Assembly (NCBI GenBank): GCA_045652405.1
Contig: JAZRUF010000107.1
Location: 1-60,081, forward strand
Origin: Eubacteriales bacterium
GTDB taxonomy: Bacteria; Bacillota; Clostridia; Oscillospirales; JAAYXM01
Length of the DNA: 60,081 nt
Direction: 5' to 3'
Both the position numbers and the translations under genes were made by a program. The notes beneath the pieces were generated by a model. That model had not been told where the DNA came from and searched no databases. It saw only the letters and a program-made list of their open reading frames with translations. Positions 6,148 to 52,601 of this stretch are shown one piece after another (the stretch's first letter is position 1; each line of letters begins with the position of its first letter).

Positions 6148-7395
6148 ATGGAGAAAACTAAATCATATGGGCTTGCAAAATATGCCTGCTATCTTACGAA
6201 TATATCAATGGCGGTTGTGGCTAGCTTATCACCGCTGTTGTTTGTCACGTTTCGTCAAATGTATGGGATTTCATATACTTTGCTTGGCTTGTTGGTAGTC
6301 GTAAATTTTTCAACTCAGTTGTTTATCGATTTGGTATTTGCTTTTTTTGCAAAAAAATTCGATATACAAAAAACAGTTCGGCTTATGCCATTTATTACTT
6401 TTTTAGGTCTTTTGATTTATGGAATACTTCCGGCGGTGTTTCCGAAAAGGGCATACTTGTGTATTGTGCTGGGAACGGTTGTGTTTTCGGTTTCTTCAGG
6501 CTTAAACGAGGTGTTGTCAAGTCCTGTAATAGCCGCTATTCCGAGCAAAAATCCTGAAAGAGAAATGAGTAAATTGCATTCAATGTATGCGTGGGGCGTA
6601 GTTGGTGTTGTTATAGTAAGCACGACGTTTTTAAGCGTGTTTGGAACTCACAATTGGGGATATCTGGCATTGTTTTGGTCGTTAGTTCCTCTGTCTGCAT
6701 TTATAATGTTCAGAAAAGCTGAACTTCCTGAAATCGGAAATTCAAATGATGAGTGCAAAAAACAAAAAAGTATAGGTATAGGAGTCATTCTTTGCTTTGT
6801 ATGCATATTCCTCGGTGGTGCTGCTGAGTGTACGATGGCGCAGTGGGCATCGGGCTTTATTGAAAACGCGATAGGGATACCGAAGCTTTGGGGTGATATA
6901 CTGGGCGTTGCGCTATTTGCGGCTCTTTTAGGGCTTGGACGAACTGTGTACACCAAATATGGGAAAAATGTACTTAATGTTATGCTCTGGGGAATGGCGG
7001 GTGCTGCAATATGCTATTTTGCTGCGAGCATCTCGCTCAATCACATAATAAGTCTTTGTGCATGTATTTTAACCGGAATTTGTGTTTCAATGTTATGGCC
7101 GGGAACTATAATATGCGTTGGCGAAAAATTCCCTTCAGCGGGAGTTGCAATTTATGCATTGATGGCTGCTGGAGGAGATATGGGAGCTTCGATTGCGCCT
7201 CAGTTGGTAGGTATCGTTTCAGATAAAATAAGCCTTAGCAATTTTGCTCTTGAATTATCGGAACTTCTTAAGATAAGCACGGAACAGATAGCAATGCGAA
7301 TGGGTTTGCTTGTTTCAACGGCATTTCCGATAATGGGTCTGATTGTGGTTATTTGCTTAAAGGCATATTTTTCTACACTGAGAAGTAATGGATAA
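6148..7395 (+). CDS. MFS transporter
   Basis: 415 aa with about 12 hydrophobic segments and a short charged central loop. Confidence 0.8.
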   Translation: MEKTKSYGLAKYACYLTNISMAVVASLSPLLFVTFRQMYGISYTLLGLLVVVNFSTQLFIDLVFAFFAKKFDIQKTVRLMPFITFLGLLIYGILPAVFPKRAYLCIVLGTVVFSVSSGLNEVLSSPVIAAIPSKNPEREMSKLHSMYAWGVVGVVIVSTTFLSVFGTHNWGYLALFWSLVPLSAFIMFRKAELPEIGNSNDECKKQKSIGIGVILCFVCIFLGGAAECTMAQWASGFIENAIGIPKLWGDILGVALFAALLGLGRTVYTKYGKNVLNVMLWGMAGAAICYFAASISLNHIISLCACILTGICVSMLWPGTIICVGEKFPSAGVAIYALMAAGGDMGASIAPQLVGIVSDKISLSNFALELSELLKISTEQIAMRMGLLVSTAFPIMGLIVVICLKAYFSTLRSNG

Positions 7396-37898: not shown

Positions 37899-37938
37899 AA
37901 TAAAAACAAAAAAACTTATAAAAAGTCTGAAATAACTC

Positions 37939-37967
37939 TTGACAATCAGCTCGGAAATCTCTATAAT
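37939..37967 (+). promoter_or_regulatory. consensus sigmaA promoter TTGACA-17-TATAAT
   Basis: An exact hexamer pair lies about 20 nt upstream of tRNA-Pro. Confidence 0.8.
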
Positions 37968-37986
37968 ATAACAAGTGTTGAGACAA

Positions 37987-38063
37987 CGGGTTGTGGCTCA
38001 GTTTGGTAGAGCGCTGCGTTCGGGACGCAGAGGCCGCAGGTTCAAATCCTGTCAACCCGACCA
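37987..38063 (+). tRNA. tRNA-Pro (anticodon CGG), CCA encoded
   Basis: The cloverleaf folds by hand. Acceptor is CGGGTTG/CAACCCG, anticodon arm is CTGCG-ttCGGga-CGCAG, and T-arm is GCAGG-ttcaaat-CCTGT. Confidence 0.95.
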
Positions 38064-38067
38064 AAAT

Positions 38068-38103
38068 AAAGGAATCTCGAAAACCGAGGTTCCTTTGTTT
38101 TTT
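38068..38103 (+). terminator. intrinsic terminator of tRNA-Pro
   Basis: AAAGGAATCTCG-aaaac-CGAGGTTCCTTT followed by GTTTTTT. Confidence 0.85.
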
Positions 38104-38108
38104 GTTTA

Positions 38109-38270
38109 GATTGGGAGGATTTGAACCTTAAGAAGGCATGCGGAGAAAAGCAAAATACTCCGGTGGAGTGTTTTGCCGACGCATGGTGCGAAGACGGGTA
38201 CTGAGCGGTTAAACCGCTCGGTCGTCAAGCAAATAAGACGCGAAGCGGCTGTATCCTGTCAACCCGACCA
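38109..38270 (+). ncRNA. tRNA-3'-end-linked structured element, copy 1 (unclassified candidate ncRNA or miniature element)
   Basis: 5' arm 38116-38128 is the reverse complement of the tRNA-Pro T-arm (13/13). Hairpin A is 38151-38175 and the TGGTGCG box is 38184-38190. The bulged hairpin B GACG-GGT-ACTG...CGGT-CGTC is 38193-38226, and hairpin C (GAA loop) is 38236-38250. The tail 38253-38270 is identical to the last 18 nt of tRNA-Pro. Confidence 0.55.
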
Positions 38271-38274
38271 AAAT

Positions 38275-38310
38275 AAAGGAATCTCGTAAAACGAGGTTCC
38301 TTTGTTTTTT
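38275..38310 (+). terminator. intrinsic terminator (near-duplicate of 38068-38103)
   Basis: It has the same stem as the tRNA-Pro terminator, with 2 substitutions at the loop edge, followed by a T-tract. Confidence 0.8.
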
Positions 38311-38315
38311 GTTTA

Positions 38316-38338
38316 GATTGGGAGGATTTGAACCTTAA
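38316..38338 (+). repeat. truncated second copy of the element 5' arm
   Basis: GATTGGGAGGATTTGAACCTTAA repeats 38109-38131 exactly and then diverges. It belongs to an 86-bp direct repeat (38046-38131 versus 38253-38338). Confidence 0.85.
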
Positions 38339-38345
38339 ACAATAG

Positions 38346-38381
38346 GGAAAAAGAGAAACTCTCGTGAGAGTTTCTCTTTTT
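38346..38381. terminator. bidirectional hairpin terminator (serves the minus-strand CNNM gene)
   Basis: AGAGAAACTCTC/GAGAGTTTCTCT stem flanked by an A-tract and a T-tract. Confidence 0.8.
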
Positions 38382-38384
38382 CGT

Positions 38385-39656
38385 TTAGTCTTTGTTTTTT
38401 TCTTCATCTTCGGTTTGGACAGTGCGGATTACTTTTGCGAAAGCGACACGATGGGAATCGGTTTGCGTTACAATTATATTTAAATTCTCGTAAGTGAAGC
38501 GGTCACCTTTTACAGGTATTTTATCCAATTGCTCCATAATCCAACCACCGAGAGATACGCTATCTGCGTCTTCGTCGTCAATGTCAAAAAACTGGCAGAA
38601 GTCATTGAAATTTACTGTGCAGTCAACCAAGAATACGTTTTCGGATAATTCGCGGAAGGTAACTGTTACTTCATCGTGTTCATCCCATATTTCACCGACC
38701 AACTCTTCGAGTATATCTTCCATTGTGACAATACCTAAAGTGCCGCCGTATTCGTCAATGACGATTGCTATATGAGACTTGCGAGTTTGCAGAAGCTTGA
38801 GTAAGTCATCTATCTTCTCCGACTTATGTATAAACAGCGGAGGAGTGATGATGTCAGTCACTTCTTTTTCGGTTACACCTGAGCCGATATAAAAATCCTT
38901 CTGATGGATTATGCCAACGATATTGTCGATGTTTTCCTTGTATACCAACAAGCGTGAAAATCTTGACTCATTGAAAACGCGTGCTATTTCCTCCTTGGGT
39001 GCTTCAATAGGAACTGCTTCCAAATCTACACGGTGGGTTAAAATATCCTCGGCTTCCAAATCGCCAAACTCTATTGCGTTGCGTAAAAGGACACCTTCAT
39101 CAGTGTCAATGCTTCCTTCTTGCTCAACCTCGTCTACCAGAAGAAGTAACTCTTCCTGAGACATTTTTGAGTCTTCCTCTACGTTAAAAAGCTTAGATAT
39201 AAGCTTTTTCCACATAGAGAATAGGAAATTGATGGGGGTAAGTACCCAAATGAGCAGACGGATAAACGGAGCAGAAAACATTGCAAATTTTTCAGGGAAA
39301 TCCTTTGCTATGCTCTTTGGTGTTATCTCGCCGAAAATGAGGACTGCTATAGTTACTACAACCGTGGATACCGTAGCTCCGATATCGCCATATAAGTGGA
39401 CAAAAAGAACCGTGCCTATAGAGGCGACTGCAATGTTTACAATGTTATTCCCTACCAAGATTGTGGAAATCAGGCGGTCATATTGCTCGGAAAGAGCCAG
39501 TGCGAGTTCTGCCTTTCGGTTCCCTTTCTCCGACAGAGCTTTTAAGCGTGTCTTGTTAAGCGAGGAAAAAGCAGTTTCGGTTGCTGAAAAATACCCTGAG
39601 AATAGTATGCATAATGCCATAGATATAATATAGGGTAATATGTCACTTGCGGTCAT
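38385..39656 (-). CDS. CNNM/CorC-type membrane protein (DUF21 + CBS pair + CorC_HlyC; 'hemolysin family')
   Basis: N-terminal 4-TM DUF21 domain, a CBS pair, and a C-terminal transporter-associated domain. Confidence 0.9.
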   Translation of the reverse strand: MTASDILPYIISMALCILFSGYFSATETAFSSLNKTRLKALSEKGNRKAELALALSEQYDRLISTILVGNNIVNIAVASIGTVLFVHLYGDIGATVSTVVVTIAVLIFGEITPKSIAKDFPEKFAMFSAPFIRLLIWVLTPINFLFSMWKKLISKLFNVEEDSKMSQEELLLLVDEVEQEGSIDTDEGVLLRNAIEFGDLEAEDILTHRVDLEAVPIEAPKEEIARVFNESRFSRLLVYKENIDNIVGIIHQKDFYIGSGVTEKEVTDIITPPLFIHKSEKIDDLLKLLQTRKSHIAIVIDEYGGTLGIVTMEDILEELVGEIWDEHDEVTVTFRELSENVFLVDCTVNFNDFCQFFDIDDEDADSVSLGGWIMEQLDKIPVKGDRFTYENLNIIVTQTDSHRVAFAKVIRTVQTEDEEKNKD

Positions 39657-39883
39657 TGTTTTTTATTCTCTCCTTAAAATTAGTTGTTAAAATAGGTTTA
39701 GTTTTAAAAATCAGAGCCGAAAATAGATTTGCCGATGCATTGAAACGCAAAAAGGCATATCCACGAGGTGTTCTGACCGCGTGGATACGCCAGTATATAC
39801 ATATCTGCAACTGTAATGGTTTCCAGTTTCGTCGTCGCTACTGTCCATTTAAAATACTGTCTCCTAAAATACAAGTTTTTATT
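39657..39883 (-). promoter_or_regulatory. about 227-nt structured 5' leader (candidate riboswitch or attenuator)
   Basis: It lies between promoter 39884-39912 and the start codon. It contains an intrinsic terminator and repeated ACAGT/ACTGG segments that could pair alternatively. Confidence 0.45.
39746..39791 (-). terminator. leader (attenuator) terminator
   Basis: On the minus strand it reads GGCGTATCCACG-14 nt-CGTGGATATGCC followed by TTTTTG. It sits about 95 nt upstream of the start codon. Confidence 0.65.
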
Positions 39884-39912
39884 ATTGTACCAAAAAGGAA
39901 TTAAACTGTCAA
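39884..39912 (-). promoter_or_regulatory. sigmaA promoter TTGACA-17-TACAAT
   Basis: Read on the minus strand, TTGACA is at 39912-39907 and TACAAT at 39889-39884. Confidence 0.7.
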
Positions 39913-40027
39913 CACATGAGAGGGATTTTCTCTGCGATTAAATCAGGGTGTATAAGGATTGTGCGCGATTTTTTGAAAATGTAGATTGAAGTTTTAAAAG
40001 AAAAAATAAAAAAATTTAAATTTAGGG

Positions 40028-40056
40028 TTGATTTTAAAATAAAGATGTGGTATCAT
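40028..40056 (+). promoter_or_regulatory. sigmaA promoter TTGATT-17-TATCAT with TGn extension
   Basis: It lies about 30 nt upstream of tRNA-Arg. Confidence 0.6.
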
Positions 40057-40088
40057 AATAAAGCTGTCAACAAAACAGCGTGAAAAAT

Positions 40089-40165
40089 GCGCTCGTAGCT
40101 CAGCTGGATAGAGTGACTGGCTACGAACCAGTAGGTCAGGGGTTCGAGTCCCTTCGGGCGCGCCA
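40089..40165 (+). tRNA. tRNA-Arg (anticodon ACG), CCA encoded
   Basis: Acceptor is GCGCTCG/CGGGCGC, anticodon arm is ACTGG-ctACGaa-CCAGT, and T-arm is AGGGG-ttcgagt-CCCTT. Confidence 0.95.
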
Positions 40166-40170
40166 GAAAA

Positions 40171-40197
40171 AGCATCGACTATAGTCGGTGCTGTTTT
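40171..40197 (+). terminator. intrinsic terminator of tRNA-Arg
   Basis: AGCATCGAC-tata-GTCGGTGCT followed by GTTTTGTTTTG. Confidence 0.8.
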
Positions 40198-40216
40198 GTT
40201 TTGTTTTGTAAATGTC

Positions 40217-40378
40217 AGGAAAGGGACTCGAACCCTGAGAGGGCACGAACCGTGAAGCAAAACAGTCCGGTGGACTGTTTTGTAGGTGAGTGGTGCGCAG
40301 ACGGGTACTGAAAGGCAAAGCCTTTCGGTCGTCAAGCAGTGCGGTTGCAAAGCAATCGTTGTCCCTTCGGGCGCGCCA
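40217..40378 (+). ncRNA. tRNA-3'-end-linked structured element, copy 2
   Basis: 5' arm 40221-40235 is the reverse complement of the tRNA-Arg T-arm (15/15). Hairpin A is 40258-40282, the TGGTGCG box is 40291-40297 and hairpin B is 40300-40333. Hairpin C (AAA loop) is 40342-40358. The tail 40361-40378 is identical to the last 18 nt of tRNA-Arg. Confidence 0.55.
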
Positions 40379-40384
40379 CAAAAA

Positions 40385-40412
40385 AGCATCGACGATAGTC
40401 GGTGCTTTTTTT
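40385..40412 (+). terminator. intrinsic terminator (near-duplicate of 40171-40197)
   Basis: AGCATCGAC-gata-GTCGGTGCT followed by TTTTTTT. Confidence 0.8.
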
Positions 40413-40452
40413 GTTTTGTTTTGAAAAAACAAAAGTATTAAATATACAATAA

Positions 40453-40481
40453 TTGACGAAAACTTAAAATATTGATATACT
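40453..40481 (+). promoter_or_regulatory. sigmaA promoter TTGACG-17-TATACT
   Basis: It lies upstream of glnA. Confidence 0.55.
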
Positions 40482-40512
40482 TATAACAATAAAAAAACAG
40501 GAGTGAAGTAAT

Positions 40513-41937
40513 ATGTCCAAAAGTGTAAATGATATTATCGCGCTTATTAAAGAAAAAGATATTAAGATGGTTGACTTTAAAATGGTTGACATCAACGGTC
40601 AGTACCGTCACGTCACAATTCCTGCAAAGAACTTTTCAGAGGATACTATGAAAAGCGGTATCGGTTTTGATGCATCAAACTACGGTTACGCGGTTGTTGA
40701 AAAAAGTGACATGGTATTTATCCCTGACCCGGACACTGCCATGATAGATCCGTTTTGTGATGTTCCCACGATTTCGATGACGGGTAATGCAATGATTATA
40801 GATAATCCTGAAAATCGACCGCTTGCCCAGTACCCGAGAAACATTGTTCTGGCTGCAGAACAGTATATGAAGGATAGCGGGATAGCAGACACCATGCTTA
40901 TTCTGCCGGAGTTTGAGTTTTATCTCTTTGACCAGGTTGCATGGGATGTTCAGCCTAACAGCATCGGCATGACGCTTGATGCAAATCAGTCGTACTGGAA
41001 CAGCGCGTCTGACGGAATGGGATGTGTGGTTCCCAAACAGAAAAATTACCATATTGCAAAGCCGTTTGACCCGACGTATGAATGCCGCAGTGAAATGTGC
41101 ATGCTTATGGAAGAGGCGGGAATACCGATAAAGTATCATCATCCTGAGGTGGGTGCTTCCGGTCAGTTTGAAATCGAGCCAAACCTGGGTCAGATGTCCA
41201 AGATGGCGGACGCATCAATGATGATTAAGTATATAATACGCAATACCGCGCTTAAGTACGGAAAGACCGCGACGCTCATGCCCAAACCTGTGTACGGCGA
41301 GGCAGGCAACGGTATGCACGTGCATATTCTGCTTATGAAAGACGGTCAACCTGTATTCTCCGATGACAACGGATATTCAAACTTAAGTGAGACTGCACAT
41401 TATTTCATGGGCGGACTGTTAAAGCATATTGCATCTCTTTGTGCTATAACAAACCCTAGTACAAACTCATTTAAGCGACTGGTTCCAGGCTTCGAGGCTC
41501 CGGTAACTGTCGGATATGCAACATCAAACCGCAGCGCGGTTATAAGAATTCCGGCATACGCAAAGAGCCCGAATATGCGTCGCTTTGAGATTCGGAATCC
41601 CGATGCAACATGTAACCCATATTTCTGCTATGCTGCAATACTCATGGCAGGGCTTGACGGAATTAAGAATAAAATTGATCCTCATGCAAACGGCTGGGGT
41701 CCGTATGACGTAAATCTTTACAATCTGCCGGAAGAGGAAAAGGCGAAATTGAAGAGCCTGCCCACTTCACTTGAAGCGGCTCTTGATGCTCTTGAGGCGG
41801 ATAATGATTACCTGACCGCCGGAGGAGTATTCCCGAAAGAGCTTATAGAAAACTTCATTAAAACAAAGCGTGAGGAATGCCGTCAGCTTGCCGCAATTCC
41901 GCACCCCGCAGAATTCGATAAATATTATAATATGTAA
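40513..41937 (+). CDS. glnA: type I glutamine synthetase
   Basis: 474 aa with KPxxGxxGNGMHVH and NPYF motifs. Confidence 0.95.
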   Translation: MSKSVNDIIALIKEKDIKMVDFKMVDINGQYRHVTIPAKNFSEDTMKSGIGFDASNYGYAVVEKSDMVFIPDPDTAMIDPFCDVPTISMTGNAMIIDNPENRPLAQYPRNIVLAAEQYMKDSGIADTMLILPEFEFYLFDQVAWDVQPNSIGMTLDANQSYWNSASDGMGCVVPKQKNYHIAKPFDPTYECRSEMCMLMEEAGIPIKYHHPEVGASGQFEIEPNLGQMSKMADASMMIKYIIRNTALKYGKTATLMPKPVYGEAGNGMHVHILLMKDGQPVFSDDNGYSNLSETAHYFMGGLLKHIASLCAITNPSTNSFKRLVPGFEAPVTVGYATSNRSAVIRIPAYAKSPNMRRFEIRNPDATCNPYFCYAAILMAGLDGIKNKIDPHANGWGPYDVNLYNLPEEEKAKLKSLPTSLEAALDALEADNDYLTAGGVFPKELIENFIKTKREECRQLAAIPHPAEFDKYYNM

Positions 41938-41945
41938 GATAAAAA

Positions 41946-41981
41946 GGCTGTTGCAAACACAGGGTTGCAACAGCCTTTTTT
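41946..41981. terminator. bidirectional terminator between glnA and the convergent transporter gene
   Basis: GGCTGTTGCAA-8 nt-TTGCAACAGCC flanked by AAAAA and TTTTTT. Confidence 0.85.
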
Positions 41982-43353
41982 AATAATTAACTACGCCCAT
42001 TATTCCAAGTATAAATATAAGTGTTATTGTAATCGGTGCGATGTAGCGAACCATAGTTGTCCACGCTCTATGGAGGGGGAAAGTAAAGCGCCTGTTTTGA
42101 GATATTTCATCCACCGCATGATGCGCACCCCATATCCAGCCTGCAAAAAGGCAAAAGCCCAGGCTGCCCAAAGGAATGAGGAGATTATCGGTTATAAGCT
42201 CGAGCATATGACCTAACGGCGGGAATACTATTCCGTCACGCACGGTATACCATATTCCCTTTAATGGCAGCGCGCCTTGGGAAAGAGAATATAATATACT
42301 GATAGGCAGCATGCCGAGGCATGAGTAAAGCACGGATTTCGACCGCGAAAGCTTTTTTTCCTCACTAAGATATGCAACCGTGCCCTCCAAAAGCGCAATT
42401 GAACTTGTAAGGGCAGCAAAGCTTAAGAGAAGATAGAATAAGAGACCGTAGAACGTGCCGCCGGACATTTGTGAAAATACCTGCGGTAAGGCTACAAAGG
42501 CAAATACACCACCGGTACTAAGCTCAGTACCGGTTGAAAAAACTGCGGGGATTATGGTGAAGGCGGCGATTAATGCGATAAATGTATCAAACACACATAC
42601 GATTATTGAGCTGGTACTTAAGTTTTCATCTTTGCTCAAATATGAACCATATGTGCAAGTGGTGCCCAGACCGATGGATAGGGAGAAAAGAGCTTGCCCG
42701 AGAGCGGAGAGAAAATCCGAAGAAGTCAGGGAAGAAAAGTCGACGTTAACAAGGAATTTAACACCTTCGACTGCTCCGGGCATTCCGAGTGAATGTACCA
42801 TTATTACGATGAGAAGCACTATAAGAGCAGGCATGAGGATTTTGTTTGCCCGCTCGATGCCACCGGATATTCCGCGTAGTACAATGAAACCGGTGATGGC
42901 AAGGAACAAAACTCCCCACAAAATGGGTTCCCATATGCCTGATATGAAGCTATTGAAATATACCGAATAGTCTTTGGAAAAGTTTGCGCCGAAGAGATAT
43001 AAAAATGTGTATTTAAGAACCTGACCGCCAATGATGCTATAATATGCAAGCACAATGAAACCGCATACAATTCCCAAGTAACCGACGAAGGTCCATTTTC
43101 GGTTTAGCTTGCGGAATGCACCTATTGTGTTTAGCTGTGTTGAGCGCCCGACGGTTAATTCTGCGAGCATTACGGATATGCCTATTGTGAATACTATGGC
43201 TGTGTATATAAGTATATAGGCTCCGCCACCCGCAGCGCCTACTTTCCCGGGGAATTTCCATATATTACCCAAGCCGATTGCGCTTCCTGCGGCAGCAAAA
43301 ATAAATCCTATTTTGGATGACCATTGCCCGCGTTTTTCCTTTTCCACCCGCAT
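41980..43353 (-). CDS. sodium-dependent transporter (NSS/SNF family)
   Basis: Has the N-terminal WSSKIGFIFAAAGSAIGLGNIWKFP signature and about 11-12 TM segments. Confidence 0.9.
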   Translation of the reverse strand: MRVEKEKRGQWSSKIGFIFAAAGSAIGLGNIWKFPGKVGAAGGGAYILIYTAIVFTIGISVMLAELTVGRSTQLNTIGAFRKLNRKWTFVGYLGIVCGFIVLAYYSIIGGQVLKYTFLYLFGANFSKDYSVYFNSFISGIWEPILWGVLFLAITGFIVLRGISGGIERANKILMPALIVLLIVIMVHSLGMPGAVEGVKFLVNVDFSSLTSSDFLSALGQALFSLSIGLGTTCTYGSYLSKDENLSTSSIIVCVFDTFIALIAAFTIIPAVFSTGTELSTGGVFAFVALPQVFSQMSGGTFYGLLFYLLLSFAALTSSIALLEGTVAYLSEEKKLSRSKSVLYSCLGMLPISILYSLSQGALPLKGIWYTVRDGIVFPPLGHMLELITDNLLIPLGSLGFCLFAGWIWGAHHAVDEISQNRRFTFPLHRAWTTMVRYIAPITITLIFILGIMGVVNY

Positions 43354-43463
43354 ATTTCCTCCTTTTGTCTATCTTTGAGCATTGCTTAAAGTGTAGTATA
43401 CCCGAAAATGTTAGGATATTTTCAATAAAACGTAAAAATAATATGAATAATTGAGTTTGAGTC

Positions 43464-43492
43464 TTGACGCTTAAAAGCTTATTTTATATAGT
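43464..43492 (+). promoter_or_regulatory. sigmaA promoter TTGACG-17-TATAGT
   Basis: It overlaps the 5' end of track ORF 43464, which argues that the real start is the ATG at 43530. Confidence 0.55.
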
Positions 43493-43529
43493 ACTTATCA
43501 AATACATATATCAGGGGTTGTGTGAAACT

Positions 43530-44279
43530 ATGAACAAAACGAAGAAAAATCGAGGTCTTGCAGCGGTTTACTTTATTCTACGTGCCTTTGTGATAGTGGT
43601 AATGGTGCGTCAGGCGTGGATAGGAAATTATACAAACGTGATGCTTTGTGCACTTACACTTACTCTTTTTATGATACCGTCTTTTGTGGAAAAACGCATT
43701 AAAATTGATATACCCGATACACTTGAGGTAATTATACTTCTTTTTATATTCTCTGCGGAAATACTCGGCGAAATCAGAGAGTATTATATAACTTTCGAGT
43801 ATTGGGATATAATGCTTCATACGATAAATGGTTTCCTTATGGGGGCTATAGGATTTTCGCTTATTGATATTTTAAACCGCAATAAAAAATTTACCATTGA
43901 GATGTCGCCGCTTTTTGTGGCGATGGTCGCGTTTTGCTTTTCCATGACAATAGGGGTGATGTGGGAGTTTTATGAATATAGCATGGATAAATTCTTTATG
44001 ACGGATATGCAAAAGGACACCTATGTTTCACAGGTGTCCTCAGTCGAGCTTAATGAAAACGGTAAAAATTCTCCAAAGGTAGTGGATATTAAAAACGTAA
44101 GAATAAATGGTGAAGAATGGCAGGGGTATTTAGATATAGGCCTTACAGATACCATGCAAGACTTGTTTGTAAATTTTATAGGCGCGGCAGTTTTCTCAAT
44201 TATCGGTTATTTTTATATAAAAAGGCGCGCCAATATAGGAGTCATACGAAGACTTACACTCGTGTACAAAAAGGATTAA
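43530..44279 (+). CDS. integral membrane protein of unknown function
   Basis: About 6 TM segments. I cannot name a family with confidence. Confidence 0.65.
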   Translation: MNKTKKNRGLAAVYFILRAFVIVVMVRQAWIGNYTNVMLCALTLTLFMIPSFVEKRIKIDIPDTLEVIILLFIFSAEILGEIREYYITFEYWDIMLHTINGFLMGAIGFSLIDILNRNKKFTIEMSPLFVAMVAFCFSMTIGVMWEFYEYSMDKFFMTDMQKDTYVSQVSSVELNENGKNSPKVVDIKNVRINGEEWQGYLDIGLTDTMQDLFVNFIGAAVFSIIGYFYIKRRANIGVIRRLTLVYKKD

Positions 44280-44281
44280 TT

Positions 44282-46921
44282 TTATTCTTTTATCCTCTTC
44301 CTCTTTATGCTTAAGAAAATTCCGTTTAAAACAGGAACTGCCGCGCAGTAAGCGCAAATTATTCCAAGTTCATTTAAACTCAGAGGAACTGTGAAGAAAA
44401 TTTTTGCAAAAAACGGAGAATATATTCCCATGAATATCGCGGCAACGGATACTATAACCGATAAAAGAAGCGGGATGTTGTTAAACCAGTTTATTGATAA
44501 AAGTCCGCGTACTTCGCTTTTACATTCAAAAACATGTATAAGCTGAGTCATAACAAGTGTAAGGAGTGCAGCGGTGCGTCCGGTATCTATATTCCCGCTT
44601 CGATGATAGAGGGTGAAGAAAGCACCCAATGTAGTAAGTCCTATAAGGATACCGCGGGTTATTATTGTCGAGGCGAGACCTCTTGAAAAAACCGATTCAT
44701 CGGCATCGCGCGGTTTTAGCTCCATTATATCTTCTTCTGCAGGCTCAAGCCCAAGAGAAATTGCGGGAAGACTGTCGGTTATTAAATTTATAAGCAGTAT
44801 CTGTATCGGAATTAAAGGTACCGGGAGTCCGATAAGCATGGCGAGGAACATAGTCACAACCTCGCCGATATTGCATGAAAGCAGATAACGAATGAATTTG
44901 CGTATGTTTGAGTAAATAACGCGCCCTTCCTCAACTGCGCATACGAGGGTTGCAAAGTTATCATCCAAAAGGATTACGGATGCAGCTTCCTTTGTCACGT
45001 CAGTCCCTGTAACACCCATGGACACTCCGATATCCGCCTCTTTTACGGCGGGAGCATCGTTTACTCCGTCACCGGTCATTGCGACAATATCGCCACGCGA
45101 TTTAAACGCTTGCACTATGCGTAGTTTATGTGCCGGAGTGACTCTTGCAAATACCGAAACGTAGGGAAGTTCGCGGCTTAGAGTCTCATCACTCATCGCA
45201 TCGAGCTCAGCGCCGGTTATTATGCGGTCGCCGTCATTATAAATGCGTAGCTTGCCGGCGATTGCCTGTGCAGTAACTGCGTGGTCGCCGGTAATCATTA
45301 TCGGGCGTATACCTGCGCGTTTACATTTTTTAACCGCGTCATACGCTTCACGGCGAGGCGGGTCGAGAAGTCCGGCAAGACCTGCAAAGATGAGGTTTTC
45401 TTCATTTGCGTCTTCAGCACCTGAAGCCGTGCGATAAGCAAAGGCGAGAACGCGAAGAGCGTTTGAAGCCATGCGATTGTTTTGGGATAAAATCATGTGC
45501 CGAGTTCGTGTATCCATCAGTTTTACACCCGAAGGAGTTAAAACATGCGTACAGCGGCCTAGCAGTAAATCGGGCGCACCCTTTGTCATCATCTCAAATT
45601 TGCCTGAGGATTCGGCTATAACGCTCATGCGTTTGCGAGTCGAGTCAAATGGGATTTCACGGCATACTGACATACCAAGTTTTTCTCTTGTGATTTTTCC
45701 TTTTAGAGCAGCTATTAAAAGGGCAGCTTCTGTGGGTTCACCGGTCACATCTGCATAGGATTTTGAGTTTTTTATAAGCTTGCCGAAGCCACGGCTTCGG
45801 GAGGGTGAGGCGGTTGCGTTGTTACACACTGTTGCAATGGTTAAAAGCTTTTCAAGCTGAGGTGTTTCATTTGTTCTGACCGGAACTTTGCCGCAGGTAA
45901 AGGTGCCTTCCGTTTCAAGACCGGTTCCTAAAACATTGATTTCTCGGTTGGGAATATAAATTTGAGTCACGGTCATTCGGTTCTCGGTTAGGGTTCCGGT
46001 TTTATCTGAGCAAATGATGTTTGCGCATCCGAGCGTTTCTACCGCGTGCAATCGCCGGATTAATGCCTTTCTTTTTACCATGCGTTTTACGGATAAGGCG
46101 AGAGCTATCGTGACGATTGCGGGTAGTCCCTCCGGGACTGCGGCGACGGAAAGTGAAATACCGGTAAGGAGCATATCAAAAACCGGCTCGCCGCGCAGAA
46201 TTCCGGTAAGTGCGACTATGGCACAGATGAAAAGACAGCCAATACCTATGTATTTACTAAGCTGTGCCAGACGGTTTTGCAAAGGTGTGGGTTGAGTATG
46301 TATACTTCCAAGCATTCCCGCAATTTTTCCCATTTCGGTCAAGTCACCTGTTTGGCGAACGCGCAGTAGACCTTTACCGCGGGTGACTAAGGTTCCCATG
46401 TACACCTTGCTTTTTTCTGAGGAGTCGCTTTCGCTTTTTGCAGCGGTCTTTTCGACCCCGCAGGATTCGCCACTCAACATAGATTCATCGCATGTAAGCT
46501 CATTTGATGTGATAAGTATTCCGTCAGCGGGGATACGGTCACCTGCGCGGAGTGAAACCAAATCGCCGGGAACAATAAGGTTTGCCCGGATTTTGATTTC
46601 ATGTCCATCGCGTATTACCGATGCCGTGGGTGCGGCAAGTTCACCGAGCTTTTCCAAGGTTTTTTCGGTTTTAAATTCCTGGATAAAGCCCATAAGAGCG
46701 TTTATGAAAATAATCGCACTTATCGTCATCGCCTCGGTAATTTCTCCCATAAAAAGCGAGAGAAGAGTTGCGGCGAGCAATATCATAATAAGCGCATCCC
46801 GAAACTGGCTTGCAAGTATTTTAAATGCTCCGTTTGACTTGCGCTTGCTTATTGAGTTCTCACCATAGCGGGTGAGAAGTTCATTGGCTGCGCGTGTACT
46901 TAAACCTTGGTATTCTGCCAT
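44282..46921 (-). CDS. P-type ATPase, Ca2+-transporting (P2A/PMCA-SERCA-like)
   Basis: Has DKTGTLT, TGDH, MTGDGVNDAP and 10-TM architecture with the PEGLP motif. Confidence 0.9.
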   Translation of the reverse strand: MAEYQGLSTRAANELLTRYGENSISKRKSNGAFKILASQFRDALIMILLAATLLSLFMGEITEAMTISAIIFINALMGFIQEFKTEKTLEKLGELAAPTASVIRDGHEIKIRANLIVPGDLVSLRAGDRIPADGILITSNELTCDESMLSGESCGVEKTAAKSESDSSEKSKVYMGTLVTRGKGLLRVRQTGDLTEMGKIAGMLGSIHTQPTPLQNRLAQLSKYIGIGCLFICAIVALTGILRGEPVFDMLLTGISLSVAAVPEGLPAIVTIALALSVKRMVKRKALIRRLHAVETLGCANIICSDKTGTLTENRMTVTQIYIPNREINVLGTGLETEGTFTCGKVPVRTNETPQLEKLLTIATVCNNATASPSRSRGFGKLIKNSKSYADVTGEPTEAALLIAALKGKITREKLGMSVCREIPFDSTRKRMSVIAESSGKFEMMTKGAPDLLLGRCTHVLTPSGVKLMDTRTRHMILSQNNRMASNALRVLAFAYRTASGAEDANEENLIFAGLAGLLDPPRREAYDAVKKCKRAGIRPIMITGDHAVTAQAIAGKLRIYNDGDRIITGAELDAMSDETLSRELPYVSVFARVTPAHKLRIVQAFKSRGDIVAMTGDGVNDAPAVKEADIGVSMGVTGTDVTKEAASVILLDDNFATLVCAVEEGRVIYSNIRKFIRYLLSCNIGEVVTMFLAMLIGLPVPLIPIQILLINLITDSLPAISLGLEPAEEDIMELKPRDADESVFSRGLASTIITRGILIGLTTLGAFFTLYHRSGNIDTGRTAALLTLVMTQLIHVFECKSEVRGLLSINWFNNIPLLLSVIVSVAAIFMGIYSPFFAKIFFTVPLSLNELGIICAYCAAVPVLNGIFLSIKRKRIKE

Positions 46922-47043
46922 TTCATAATACCTTCCTTTCAGCGGTTGTCCTTAATACTTATGATAAAAAAGAAGAGTATATGACGTGCCGCCCGAAGCT
47001 GAACGGCGGAATGAAAAAAATTTTATTTTTCTTAAAATAACTC

Positions 47044-47072
47044 TTGTGTTTTTAAAAAATGTGTGATAGAAT
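47044..47072 (+). promoter_or_regulatory. sigmaA promoter TTGTGT-17-TAGAAT with TGn extension
   Basis: It lies about 20 nt upstream of tRNA-Leu(CAG). Confidence 0.6.
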
Positions 47073-47092
47073 ATTAAAGCTGATTATCATTT

Positions 47093-47179
47093 GCGGATAT
47101 GGCGGAATCGGCAGACGCGCTAGATTCAGGTTCTAGTCGGGGCAACTCGGTGGAGGTTCAAGTCCTCTTATCCGCACCA
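47093..47179 (+). tRNA. tRNA-Leu (anticodon CAG), type II, CCA encoded
   Basis: Acceptor is GCGGATA/TATCCGC, anticodon arm is CTAGA-ttCAGgt-TCTAG. It has a long variable arm and the T-arm GGAGG-ttcaagt-CCTCT. Confidence 0.95.
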
Positions 47180-47181
47180 AA

Positions 47182-47214
47182 AGCTACCCATTGAGGGTAG
47201 CTTTTATTTTTTTT
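47182..47214 (+). terminator. intrinsic terminator of tRNA-Leu(CAG)
   Basis: AGCTACCC-attga-GGGTAGCT followed by TTTTATTTTTTTT. Confidence 0.85.
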
Positions 47215-47218
47215 CTTT

Positions 47219-47375
47219 AAAAGAGGACTTGAATCTTAAGAAGGCAACGAGCGTACAAAAAACGATTCATAATCGTTTTTAGCGAAGTTGGTGCGCAGAC
47301 GGGTACTGAAAGGCGCTGCCTTTAGGTCGTCAAGCAAGTAAGACGCGAAGCGACTGTGTCCTCTTATTCGCACCA
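47219..47375 (+). ncRNA. tRNA-3'-end-linked structured element, copy 3
   Basis: 5' arm 47221-47236 is the reverse complement of the tRNA-Leu T-arm (15/16). Hairpin A, at 47258-47280, has a completely different stem sequence from the other copies. The TGGTGCG box is 47289-47295, hairpin B is 47298-47331 and hairpin C (GAA loop) is 47341-47355. The tail 47358-47375 matches 17/18 of the tRNA-Leu(CAG) 3' end. Confidence 0.55.
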
Positions 47376-47380
47376 AAAAC

Positions 47381-52258: not shown

Positions 52259-52287
52259 TTGACAAATACGATAAAAACAGATATAAT
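52259..52287 (+). promoter_or_regulatory. consensus sigmaA promoter TTGACA-17-TATAAT
   Basis: Exact hexamers lie about 30 nt upstream of tRNA-Leu(GAG). Confidence 0.8.
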
Positions 52288-52318: not shown

Positions 52319-52402
52319 GCGAGTGTGCTGGAACTGGCAGACAGGCACGTTTGAGGGGCGTGTGCTTATGGCGTACGGGTTCAAGTCCCGTCACTCGCAC
52401 CA
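52319..52402 (+). tRNA. tRNA-Leu (anticodon GAG), type II, CCA encoded
   Basis: Acceptor is GCGAGTG/CACTCGC, anticodon arm is CACGT-ttGAGgg-GCGTG. It has a long variable arm and the T-arm ACGGG-ttcaagt-CCCGT. Confidence 0.9.
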
Positions 52403-52437: not shown

Positions 52438-52450
52438 ATTTTATGATATC

Positions 52451-52598
52451 AGAAGGGACTTGAAGCCTAAGAGGGTTTTTGCGTAAAACAAAACAGTCCG
52501 GTGGACTGTTTTGTAGCAAAAAGGTGCGAAGACGGGTACTGCAAAGCGGTCGTCGAGCAAATAGTATGCGAAGCATACGTGTCCCGTCACTCGCACCA
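52451..52598 (+). ncRNA. tRNA-3'-end-linked structured element, copy 4
   Basis: 5' arm 52455-52464 is the reverse complement of the T-loop and T-stem of tRNA-Leu(GAG) (10/10, with partial matches beyond). Hairpin A is 52489-52513 and the GGTGCGA box is 52523-52529. Hairpin B, at 52531-52554, is minimal (ACTGC-aaa-GCGGT). Hairpin C (GAA loop) is 52564-52578. The tail 52581-52598 is identical to the last 18 nt of the tRNA. Confidence 0.55.
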
Positions 52599-52601
52599 AA
52601 T

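Follow-up and report, generated by a model that had tools for sequence, protein, structure and literature searches.

The window analyzed here, a stretch of 60,081 nucleotides from a Eubacteriales bacterium, contains four tRNA genes. All are on the + strand and are the only genuine tRNAs detected by ARAGORN. Each of the four genes is followed by an intrinsic terminator, a spacer of 8-20 nt and then a related element of ~155-160 nt. The module was named E, and a covariance model finds four copies in the window and none further. The tRNA genes and element copies are arranged as follows.

37987-38063, + strand, tRNA-Pro(CGG), detected by ARAGORN, with a perfect consensus promoter upstream at 37939-37967
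38110-38270, + strand, element copy 1 (CM R1, 141 bits), arms matching tRNA-Pro
38316-38338, + strand, remnant of a distal unit behind copy 1, GATTGGGAGGATTTGAACCTTAA, of which the 5' arm alone remains
40089-40165, + strand, tRNA-Arg(ACG), detected by ARAGORN (Rfam tRNA, 63 bits)
40217-40378, + strand, element copy 2 (covariance model), arms beginning at 40221 and matching tRNA-Arg
47093-47179, + strand, tRNA-Leu(CAG), detected by ARAGORN
47218-47375, + strand, element copy 3, with a type II hairpin A, a direct repeat of only 22 nt and different terminators on its two sides
52319-52402, + strand, tRNA-Leu(GAG), detected by ARAGORN, with a perfect consensus promoter upstream at 52259-52287
52449-52598, + strand, element copy 4, with hairpin B shrunk to GCAAAGC

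The core pattern GACGGGTACTG..GGTCGTC occurs four times in the window compared to zero expected. A scan of ten window ORFs flanking the elements, all beyond the first 36 kb, gave housekeeping Pfam domains only. A CNNM/CorC transporter gene sits between copies 1 and 2, and the genes downstream of the copies are those of this transporter and of a putative glutamine synthetase (the ORF at 40513, as judged by eye), an ORF lacking any Pfam domain and the gene of a LacI-type regulator. A 131-aa minus-strand ORF (39994-40389) overlaps copy 2 and was rejected as coding sequence; it is a mechanical artifact because the copy-to-copy indels are not multiples of three.

A unit of E is ~200 bp long and has no ORF. 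It runs from tRNA positions 59-76 through a terminator, a short spacer, an antisense T arm and the core to a displaced second set of positions 59-76 and a second terminator. The 5' arm is the reverse complement of the T arm of the adjacent tRNA (positions 51-65), and the 3' arm repeats the final 18 nt of that tRNA (59-76, CCA included). The antisense 5' arm and the sense 3' arm pair to form helix P1. P2 is a 4-bp hairpin with a GAG, AAG or GTG triloop. The core of ~115 nt consists of P3, a stem that contains tandem G.A pairs and encloses hairpin A; P4, which combines TGC/GCA, the invariant GACG-(GGU)-ACUG / CGGU-CGUC with its near-invariant U.G, and the variable hairpin B; and P5, which is hairpin C. 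Written as RNA, the invariant P4 helix is GACG(GGU)ACUG/CGGUCGUC. Copy 2, which duplicates the T arm and last 18 nt (40148-40165) of tRNA-Arg(ACG) in its arms, has the following parts.

40171-40208, + strand, terminator T1 behind tRNA-Arg; a near-repeat of it follows the element, so T1 belongs to the direct repeat
40221-40243, + strand, 5' arm, the whole being the reverse complement of the tRNA-Arg T arm
40221-40227, + strand, b' (AAGGGAC), pairing with 40361-40367 as P1
40228-40232, + strand, TCGAA, complement of T-loop positions 54-58
40233-40243, + strand, P2 (CCCT-GAG-AGGG), part of the 5' arm
40244-40292, + strand, P3, CACGAACC/GGTGAGTG with tandem G.A
40259-40281, + strand, hairpin A, AAAACAGTCC-GGT-GGACTGTTTT, inside P3
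40294-40338, + strand, P4, TGC/GCA and GACG-(GGT)-ACTG / CGGT-CGTC
40311-40325, + strand, hairpin B, the variable part of P4
40341-40358, + strand, P5 (hairpin C), CGGTTGC-AAA-GCAATCG
40361-40378, + strand, 3' arm, exactly tRNA-Arg positions 59-76 (GTCCCTTCGGGCGCGCCA)
40380-40420, + strand, terminator T2 behind copy 2, a near-copy of T1

An earlier note on this DNA had described a folded RNA at 40258-40358. That span lies within the element and covers the core only; the full unit is 40217-40378. Hairpins A, B and C constitute just the core because tRNA-matched arms flank them and form P1. That description left out the defining feature of the module, namely the arms specific to each tRNA and the directly repeated tRNA 3' end.

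The arms follow the adjacent tRNA. They match the neighboring tRNA in all 31 copies that have an upstream tRNA, a set that spans Thr, Arg (three anticodons), Lys, Ser, Pro, Leu, Glu, Ala, Trp, Gln and Met. Complementarity of the antisense arm is at least 0.87 over tRNA positions 54-63 and drops steeply at position 50 and past position 66. The stretch complementary to T-loop positions 54-58 stays single-stranded in the fold but still follows the tRNA: opposite G or A at position 57 the arm has C or T in 29 of the 31 copies, and the remaining two form G.U. Most sense arms begin at the point 18 nt from the tRNA end, and in 26 of 27 aligned copies at most one base departs from the tRNA sequence, the exception (L099) being an extraction artifact. 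Two otherwise intact copies (L047 and L133) have lost the acceptor/CCA part of the 3' arm.

Two alignments were used to evaluate the fold. Alignment A4 contains 42 distinct model-aligned copies from gut and rumen Clostridia MAGs. In the five-helix fold 88.6% of its cells pair compared to 36-48% with the partners slid, both partners vary in 36 of the 51 pairs, and covariation scores 0.444 (versus 0.07-0.10), which none of 500 shuffles reaches; these figures lean towards the model structure because A4 was fitted to it. An independent MAFFT alignment of 27 copies (A2), evaluated against a structure named by the analyst, gives 85.7% pairing versus 37-47% slid and a covariation score of 0.40 versus 0.09-0.11. 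There are 116 G.U cells (75 without the near-invariant U.G of ACUG/CGGU) versus 32 A.C cells, 20 of which fall in the outer P1 columns, where pairing is weak. Because G.U far exceeds A.C, it is the tRNA-sense strand that folds. G.U is tolerated to ~30% at several pairs. The tRNA-sense strand thus has a conserved fold backed by genuine compensatory changes. The covariation also fits a folded single DNA strand, and thermodynamic z-scores do not separate the strands (-3.6 versus -4.4) or the chemistries. When copies 2 and 4 are folded singly, their conserved GGTGCG pairs with the 3' tail. This pairing was rejected as not general, and covariation favors TGC/GCA. A pairing of GGTGCG with the NCCA end, resembling a T-box bulge, was likewise rejected as it does not covary with the discriminator base.

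The earlier note had based its proposal on compensatory changes and strand-specific G.U pairs among the four window copies, and on re-inspection its sequence details are all correct. For hairpin A, copies 2 and 4 share AAAACAGTCC-GGT-GGACTGTTTT and copy 1 reads AAAATACTCC-GGT-GGAGTGTTTT, the changes between copies 1 and 2 being G-C to C-G and C-G to U.G, and copy 3 has an unrelated stem, AAAACGATT-CAT-AATCGTTTT. Copy 1 has GCGG/CCGC as the upper stem of hairpin B, copies 2 and 3 have AAGGC/GCCTT, and copy 4 has none. Hairpin C reads AGACGC/GCGGCT, CGGTTGC/GCAATCG, AGACGC/GCGACT and GTATGC/GCATAC in copies 1 to 4, respectively. GACG-(GGT)-ACTG...CGGT-CGTC can be drawn in all four copies, with one G.A in copy 3, which has AGGT. 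The larger alignment bears out the compensatory changes and the G.U asymmetry, and the covariation persists after sequences are added. The conserved fold and its strand therefore stand from the proposal of a folded RNA on the tRNA-sense strand; its RNA nature is no more than possible, given 0 promoters in 41 copies, the bracketing by terminators and the triloops described below.

Scans of GTDB genomes and metagenomes located at least ~45 real loci, all in gut or rumen Clostridia MAGs labeled Acutalibacteraceae, Oscillospiraceae, Congzhengia or 'Eubacteriales'. Both collection scans were keyed to the invariant core, and the taxonomic range seen is a lower bound. A loose core pattern run against genome contigs gave ~28 real loci out of 119 among the matches listed, the rest being mostly high-GC chance matches. 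Nothing real was found in IMG/VR or in the phage and plasmid collections. Rfam 15 at gathering thresholds returned three tRNA genes only, and at E<=10 over 37900-40450 it returned nothing plausible on the core. A description of this element was not found in the literature, including searches with conserved sequence strings.

L074 and L093 are orthologous tRNA-Arg(TCT) loci with a 5.5-kb upstream flank that is 73% identical and cores that are 94% identical. The differences between the cores include one compensatory change from C-G to T-A, and the tRNA-proximal terminators are unrelated. Either the locus is under strong selection or the core was replaced recently. L086 (tRNA-Pro) and L103 (tRNA-Glu) come from different MAGs and also have cores that are 94% identical, joined to unrelated arms, terminators and spacers. 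The identity begins directly after P2 and stops directly before position 59. This pattern suggests either that arms are readily exchanged or that cores are homogenized by gene conversion.

The direct repeat has a left edge fixed in the T loop (58|59), a variable right edge and a length of 18-85 nt. The repeat stops at or just beyond CCA in some copies (18-23 nt) and spans the terminator in others (54-78 nt, several perfect), and the terminator belongs to the repeat in most copies. Around copy 4 the repeat is a perfect 54 nt (tRNA positions 59-76 and the terminator), and the repeat of copy 1 reaches into the next antisense arm. The perfect 54-78-nt repeats suggest recent events. All units are co-oriented with the tRNA, and there is one unit per tRNA transcription unit, as counted for the RNA alternative weighed below. 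Tandem arrays also occur, with three copies at a 198-nt period in L141 and two copies in L086. Mixed arrays (L028, L093, L074 and L112) include an unrelated second core ('variant X'), and two more cores are carried on the same arms behind a tRNA-Tyr gene (L118) and a tRNA-Ser gene (L102), giving at least four unrelated cores on the same arms. Distal units are truncated, 5'-partial and of varied lengths (copy 1, L146, L139, L135 and L141). Those of L139 and L135 break within the loop of hairpin A, L141 shows a 4-nt microhomology deletion, and L146, a close relative, has a slightly longer distal remnant at apparently the same locus as copy 1.

In the relative L147 (CNNM/CorC protein 84% identical) the tRNA-Arg(ACG) gene is identical and is followed by a terminator only, with no E, in a rearranged context. 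Behind copy 3, the terminator and the adjoining flank have their native homologs in L147, so it was the terminator on the upstream side of this copy that arrived with the insert. Retro-insertion of an RNA that ends at its own terminator, with entry behind the tRNA terminator, is disfavored because the terminator after copy 3 is the native one. An exact empty/filled pair was not found via CNNM/CorC homologs; in this comparison contigs end inside the repeat and synteny is broken already at 96-98% protein identity. Neither a recombinase for E nor a circle was found. Integrase-bearing elements adjoin the copies of L135 and L041, and most copies sit among housekeeping genes without mobile-element genes nearby.

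Signals for transcription were scored around the element. In a search confined to sigma-70-like sites, 0 of 41 distinct copies have a promoter in the interval from the tRNA terminator to the element, with 2.2 expected by chance. Applied to 46 regions upstream of tRNA genes, the same criteria give 30 matches, and 12 of these carry TTGACA-17-TATAAT at 12/12 consensus. The tRNA promoters are of consensus strength, and therefore terminator read-through could be substantial. Each element copy is bracketed by + strand terminators, and in the window copies a terminator follows CCA. Hairpin A itself is terminator-like (A4-stem-T4-6, the flanking A4 and T4 being invariant) and looks like a bidirectional terminator. 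Terminal loops are triloops in 120 of 164 cases (73%), such as C(GAA)G, C(GCA)G, C(GTA)G, C(AAA)G and C(GGT)G, with few GNRA loops. GNA triloops closed by C-G are classic hyperstable DNA minihairpins, and natural RNAs prefer GNRA and UNCG tetraloops. The + strand is the lagging-strand template, transiently single-stranded in replication, because the GC skew is positive over the whole window. Promoter absence, terminators, triloops and GC skew together appear to favor a folded DNA strand over RNA.

The best explanation from these sequence comparisons, held tentatively, is that E may be an ORF-less miniature cassette that inserts at the T loop/3' segment of tRNA genes. E would enter by site-specific recombination in the T loop or 3' segment and supply a replacement 3' end and terminator, so that the tRNA would stay functional. 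It would move as a small circle, of which the single + strand would fold. In the folded strand P2, the unpaired complement of T-loop positions 54-58 and P1 would mimic the T-arm duplex of the target, with the core exiting at the place of the T loop. By analogy with folded attC sites and the CTX-phage attP, this T-arm mimic would be the recombination site, and the putative recombinase would be provided in trans. A precedent is MITEPpu9/ssr9, a MITE-like module of an IS110-family element that carries an sRNA, forms minicircles and uses a transposase in trans (PMC12288879). Against the cassette stands the failure of the searches to find a recombinase, circle or exact empty/filled pair. The 94% core versus 73% flank identity of L074 and L093 fits function at the locus as well as recent spread, and RNA typically shows such frequent, apparently neutral U.G pairs and a near-invariant U.G. 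A pure att-site mimic would not need its unpaired T-loop 54-58 complement to track the tRNA, as it does here. Nor does the cassette account for the re-matching of the arms to a new tRNA.

E matches none of the known families compared and is filed with tRNA-targeted integrative elements because every known family compared fails a defining feature. The closest class is the integrative elements of tRNA genes and the CIMEs, which are cis-mobilizable, gene-less derivatives of integrative elements at tRNA genes. Like E, they are flanked by a direct repeat of the tRNA 3' segment, restore the 3' end so that the tRNA gene is intact, and accrete in tandem at one tRNA. They also vary in presence among relatives, as E appears to do. 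E differs in being only ~200 bp without an integrase, in having an antisense T arm and a covarying five-helix core, and in its occurrence at nearly every tRNA transcription unit seen. Compared to the tyrosine-integrase type, E has the direct repeat and the intact tRNA gene, and no integrase gene lies inside the element. The attC bottom strand and the CTX-phage attP(+) conserve structure over sequence and fold strand-specifically with bulged bases. As in E, two inverted segments pair to mimic a double-stranded partner site, and arrays have one orientation. In contrast, E is without RYYYAAC/GTTRRRY or dif-like boxes, its paired segments copy an individual tRNA target, and its variable part is in an internal-loop position rather than the apex. 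An integron attC site was rejected since the paired ends are tRNA-specific (e.g. AAGGGAC/GTCCCTT) rather than R''/R' boxes, and an integron array since the ten scanned flanking ORFs are housekeeping genes and the copies are dispersed, one per tRNA gene.

MITEPpu9 resembles E as a small, gene-less, structured sequence that undergoes tandem duplication; unlike E it has conserved A/B end boxes, recombination at an AG dinucleotide in REP sequences and its own promoter (PMC12288879), and it is without target-derived arms. The bridge (seek) RNA of IS110/IS1111 is, like E, one folded nucleic acid with segments able to pair both target strands. Its guides lie in two internal loops, it adjoins a recombinase gene and it is associated with a 2-nt duplication, whereas E has target-matching segments at both ends, no ORF and a repeat of at least 18 nt; E was rejected as a bridge/seek RNA on these grounds. 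A MITE was rejected because the inverted ends change with the tRNA and the duplication is 18-85 nt with one edge fixed. The long direct repeat, a left-end hairpin (the terminator) that varies and the missing Rfam match eliminate an IS200/IS605 derivative (PATE) and a TnpB/IscB omega RNA. A retron msr-msd was discarded as the genes downstream of the copies have no reverse transcriptase domain.

YrlA (a bacterial Y RNA) and tmRNA share with E, if it is an RNA, a tRNA-like 3' end made of the acceptor 3' strand, discriminator base and CCA. E differs in having neither a T-loop or D-arm mimic nor the acceptor 5' strand, in having no Rfam match, and in copying a specific neighboring tRNA and also its antisense. 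A tRNA, tmRNA or tRNA-like RNA was rejected because ARAGORN has no match on E and the acceptor 5' strand and T loop are missing. An independently transcribed sRNA gene was rejected on the lack of its own sigma-70-like promoter in all 41 copies, though a 3' intrinsic terminator is present. Hammerhead, twister and other small-ribozyme motifs failed on a defining feature.

E could be a structured noncoding RNA produced by read-through of the tRNA terminator from the strong tRNA promoter and acting on the cognate tRNA or pre-tRNA, a serious alternative that we consider somewhat less likely than the cassette. The 5' arm would pair with the T arm (51-65), the 3' arm would offer a copy of the acceptor 3' strand plus NCCA, and the invariant P4 helix would bind a protein or be catalytic, with arrays and repeats as by-products of duplication. 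Such an RNA might capture unfolded tRNA or control its quality, splint tRNAs with a damaged T loop or 3' end and supply them with a spare part, or guide a protein to the tRNA gene. Strong covariation, G.U up to 30% at several pairs, the near-invariant U.G in the invariant helix and the tandem G.A motifs are all consistent with RNA. So are the single co-oriented and matched unit per tRNA transcription unit, the tracking of T-loop position 57 despite its being unpaired, the core conservation of 94% against 73% for flanking genes, and the terminator that ends every copy downstream of tRNA promoters that reach 12/12 consensus. This account is weakened by the lack of a promoter in all 41 copies, the strong terminator immediately upstream, a terminator-like hairpin A inside the RNA, and the prevalence of triloops with GNRA/UNCG loops scarce. 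At least four unrelated cores on the same arms would be odd for a single RNA function, and L047 and L133 are otherwise intact despite loss of the acceptor/CCA part of the 3' arm. The specific version in which the RNA splints the cognate tRNA and donates a spare 3' fragment (positions 59-76) to repair it is less likely than the self-addressed module considered next.

It is unlikely, though worth stating, that E is a protein-less self-addressed mobile module in which the arms read both strands of the T-arm/3' region, the core recruits a host or trans enzyme, and the target dictates the arms by copying or correction, so that one core could colonize every tRNA gene. If this were true, E would be a naturally programmable insertion system of an undescribed kind. 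More improbable again is an RNA- or DNA-guided programmable insertion module served by a recombinase in trans, with arms rewritten from the target on insertion; its antisense arm would pair with the top strand at 51-65 and its sense arm with the bottom strand at 59-76. The arms do address opposite strands with a 7-10-nt overlap that equals P1, and the 94% identical cores on wholly different arms in L086 (tRNA-Pro) and L103 (tRNA-Glu) are as this module would predict. The arrangement also resembles the reported dual-strand recognition by IS110 bridge RNAs (PMC12288879). However, gene conversion between the cores of resident copies gives the same mosaic, the searches found no partner protein, IS110-like ORF or 2-nt core duplication, and no rewriting mechanism is known. 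At the far end, E as an inert scar, the leftover attachment-site arms of larger tRNA-integrating prophages or ICEs, is disfavored as highly improbable. Integrase-bearing elements adjoining L135 and L041 and the likeness of the tRNA 3'-end direct repeats to attL/attR point in this direction. They are outweighed by the compensatory changes in five helices over 42 copies, the invariant P4 helix and the high conservation relative to flanking genes, and by the location of most copies among housekeeping genes without mobile-element genes and the lack of a match in the phage, plasmid and IMG/VR collections.

If E is a mobile cassette, it would be, to our knowledge, the smallest tRNA-targeted integrative unit described so far, and a gene-less element could fill almost every tRNA transcription unit without harming the tRNAs. 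Mutually pairing, target-matched arms could address both DNA strands, which suggests base-pair-programmed site choice and bears on programmable DNA insertion. As an RNA, E would represent a new class: each tRNA gene would have a partner transcript (antisense T arm plus sense 3' end), which would add a further layer to tRNA biology in abundant, poorly cultured gut Clostridia. E would be categorically new if either the RNA or the programmable-insertion explanation were true. Either way, the repeats break assemblies, appear to mark rearrangement sites between tRNA loci and offer integration sites to larger mobile elements.

The genome of a relative (locus L147), whose CNNM protein is 84% identical to the transporter encoded between window copies 1 and 2, carries a tRNA-Arg(ACG) without the element, the folded module of about 155-160 nt found behind tRNA genes. 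Immediately behind this tRNA gene comes the flank found in the window after tRNA-Leu(CAG) and copy 3, and a 7-kb segment encoding glnA, an SNF-family transporter and a P-type ATPase (window about 40170-47380) is therefore absent from L147 or relocated. The two arrangements point to rearrangement between tRNA/element loci. Contigs of close relatives with 96-98% protein identity (L146, 5272-5402; L150; L152) either stop within the tRNA 3' end repeat or differ in their neighbours. These repeats break both assemblies and synteny.

At two loci an integrase or integrase-like gene lies beside a copy.

L135 755-1813, minus strand, integrase-like ORF (phrog_1, E = 2e-9; Pfam matches below cut-off)
L041 2688-4280, minus strand, large serine integrase gene (phrog_95, E = 1e-124)

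Some 330 nt separate the L135 ORF from a junction at which an element is cut precisely within the loop of hairpin A (..GTGCG/GTCCGGTGGACTG.., slash at the junction), and the junctions in this locus are located near 2140 and 2340. The same loop holds a second, separate truncation (..CAGTCCGGTGGAG/TTTGCAAAC..), which is non-reciprocal and adjoins housekeeping genes in L135 and L139 (about 14390). Both loop junctions share GTCCGGTGGA, and larger mobile elements may use hairpin A as an attachment site. The serine integrase gene of L041 stops immediately upstream of an element without a tRNA in front of it; the 3' end of the gene overlaps the degenerate T-arm/3' end of a tRNA-Lys, whose T loop carries an insertion of 8 nt.

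A second family, variant X, shares both tRNA arms, antisense and sense, and hairpin A with the canonical element but has an unrelated core, GGCAACGAGCnnnGCGAGGCGATAGGyGCGGGCAGCrCCGAGA. Variant X and the canonical element stand in tandem, both behind one and the same tRNA. Two further units of about 200 nt, one behind a tRNA-Tyr and one behind a tRNA-Ser, combine an antisense T-arm and a tRNA 3' end repeat with different cores.

L093 6268-6393, variant X
L028 2076-2198, minus strand, variant X
L112 311-418, variant X
L074 after 5960, variant X
L118 about 6790-6990, ~200-nt unit behind tRNA-Tyr
L102 about 700-900, ~200-nt unit behind tRNA-Ser-GCT

The tRNA-Ser gene of L102 does not encode the CCA, and its unit's repeat matches the gene, not the mature tRNA.

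The most conserved core motif of the element, TGGTGCGAAGACGGGTACT, is present in the core of every copy (window 52522-52541 in copy 4) and resembles the reverse complement of the tRNA-Leu(GAG) 3' end, TGGTGCGAGTGACGGGACT (52583-52600), with 17 matching positions and two 1-nt gaps. tRNA-Leu(GAG) was the best of 41 tRNAs compared with the motif, scoring 13 against 11 for the next best and a mean of 6.8. The likeness could be coincidental, or a fossil left by an older arm.

The sequence GTCGAGnGCCTCGACACGCAAT follows two elements whose tRNA-Pro-like arms differ (L067, after 6270; L114, minus strand, after the CCA); its first arm complements the acceptor 3' strand CTCGAC.

Three other window features were recorded.

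39994-40389, minus strand, mechanical 131-aa ORF overlapping copy 2
37939-37967, perfect 12/12 sigma-70 consensus promoter (TTGACA-17-TATAAT) upstream of tRNA-Pro
52259-52287, perfect 12/12 sigma-70 consensus promoter (TTGACA-17-TATAAT) upstream of tRNA-Leu(GAG)

The ORF was rejected as a gene because indels between the copies are not multiples of three. Across the related loci, the perfect sigma-70 consensus occurs in 12 of 46 tRNA upstream regions.
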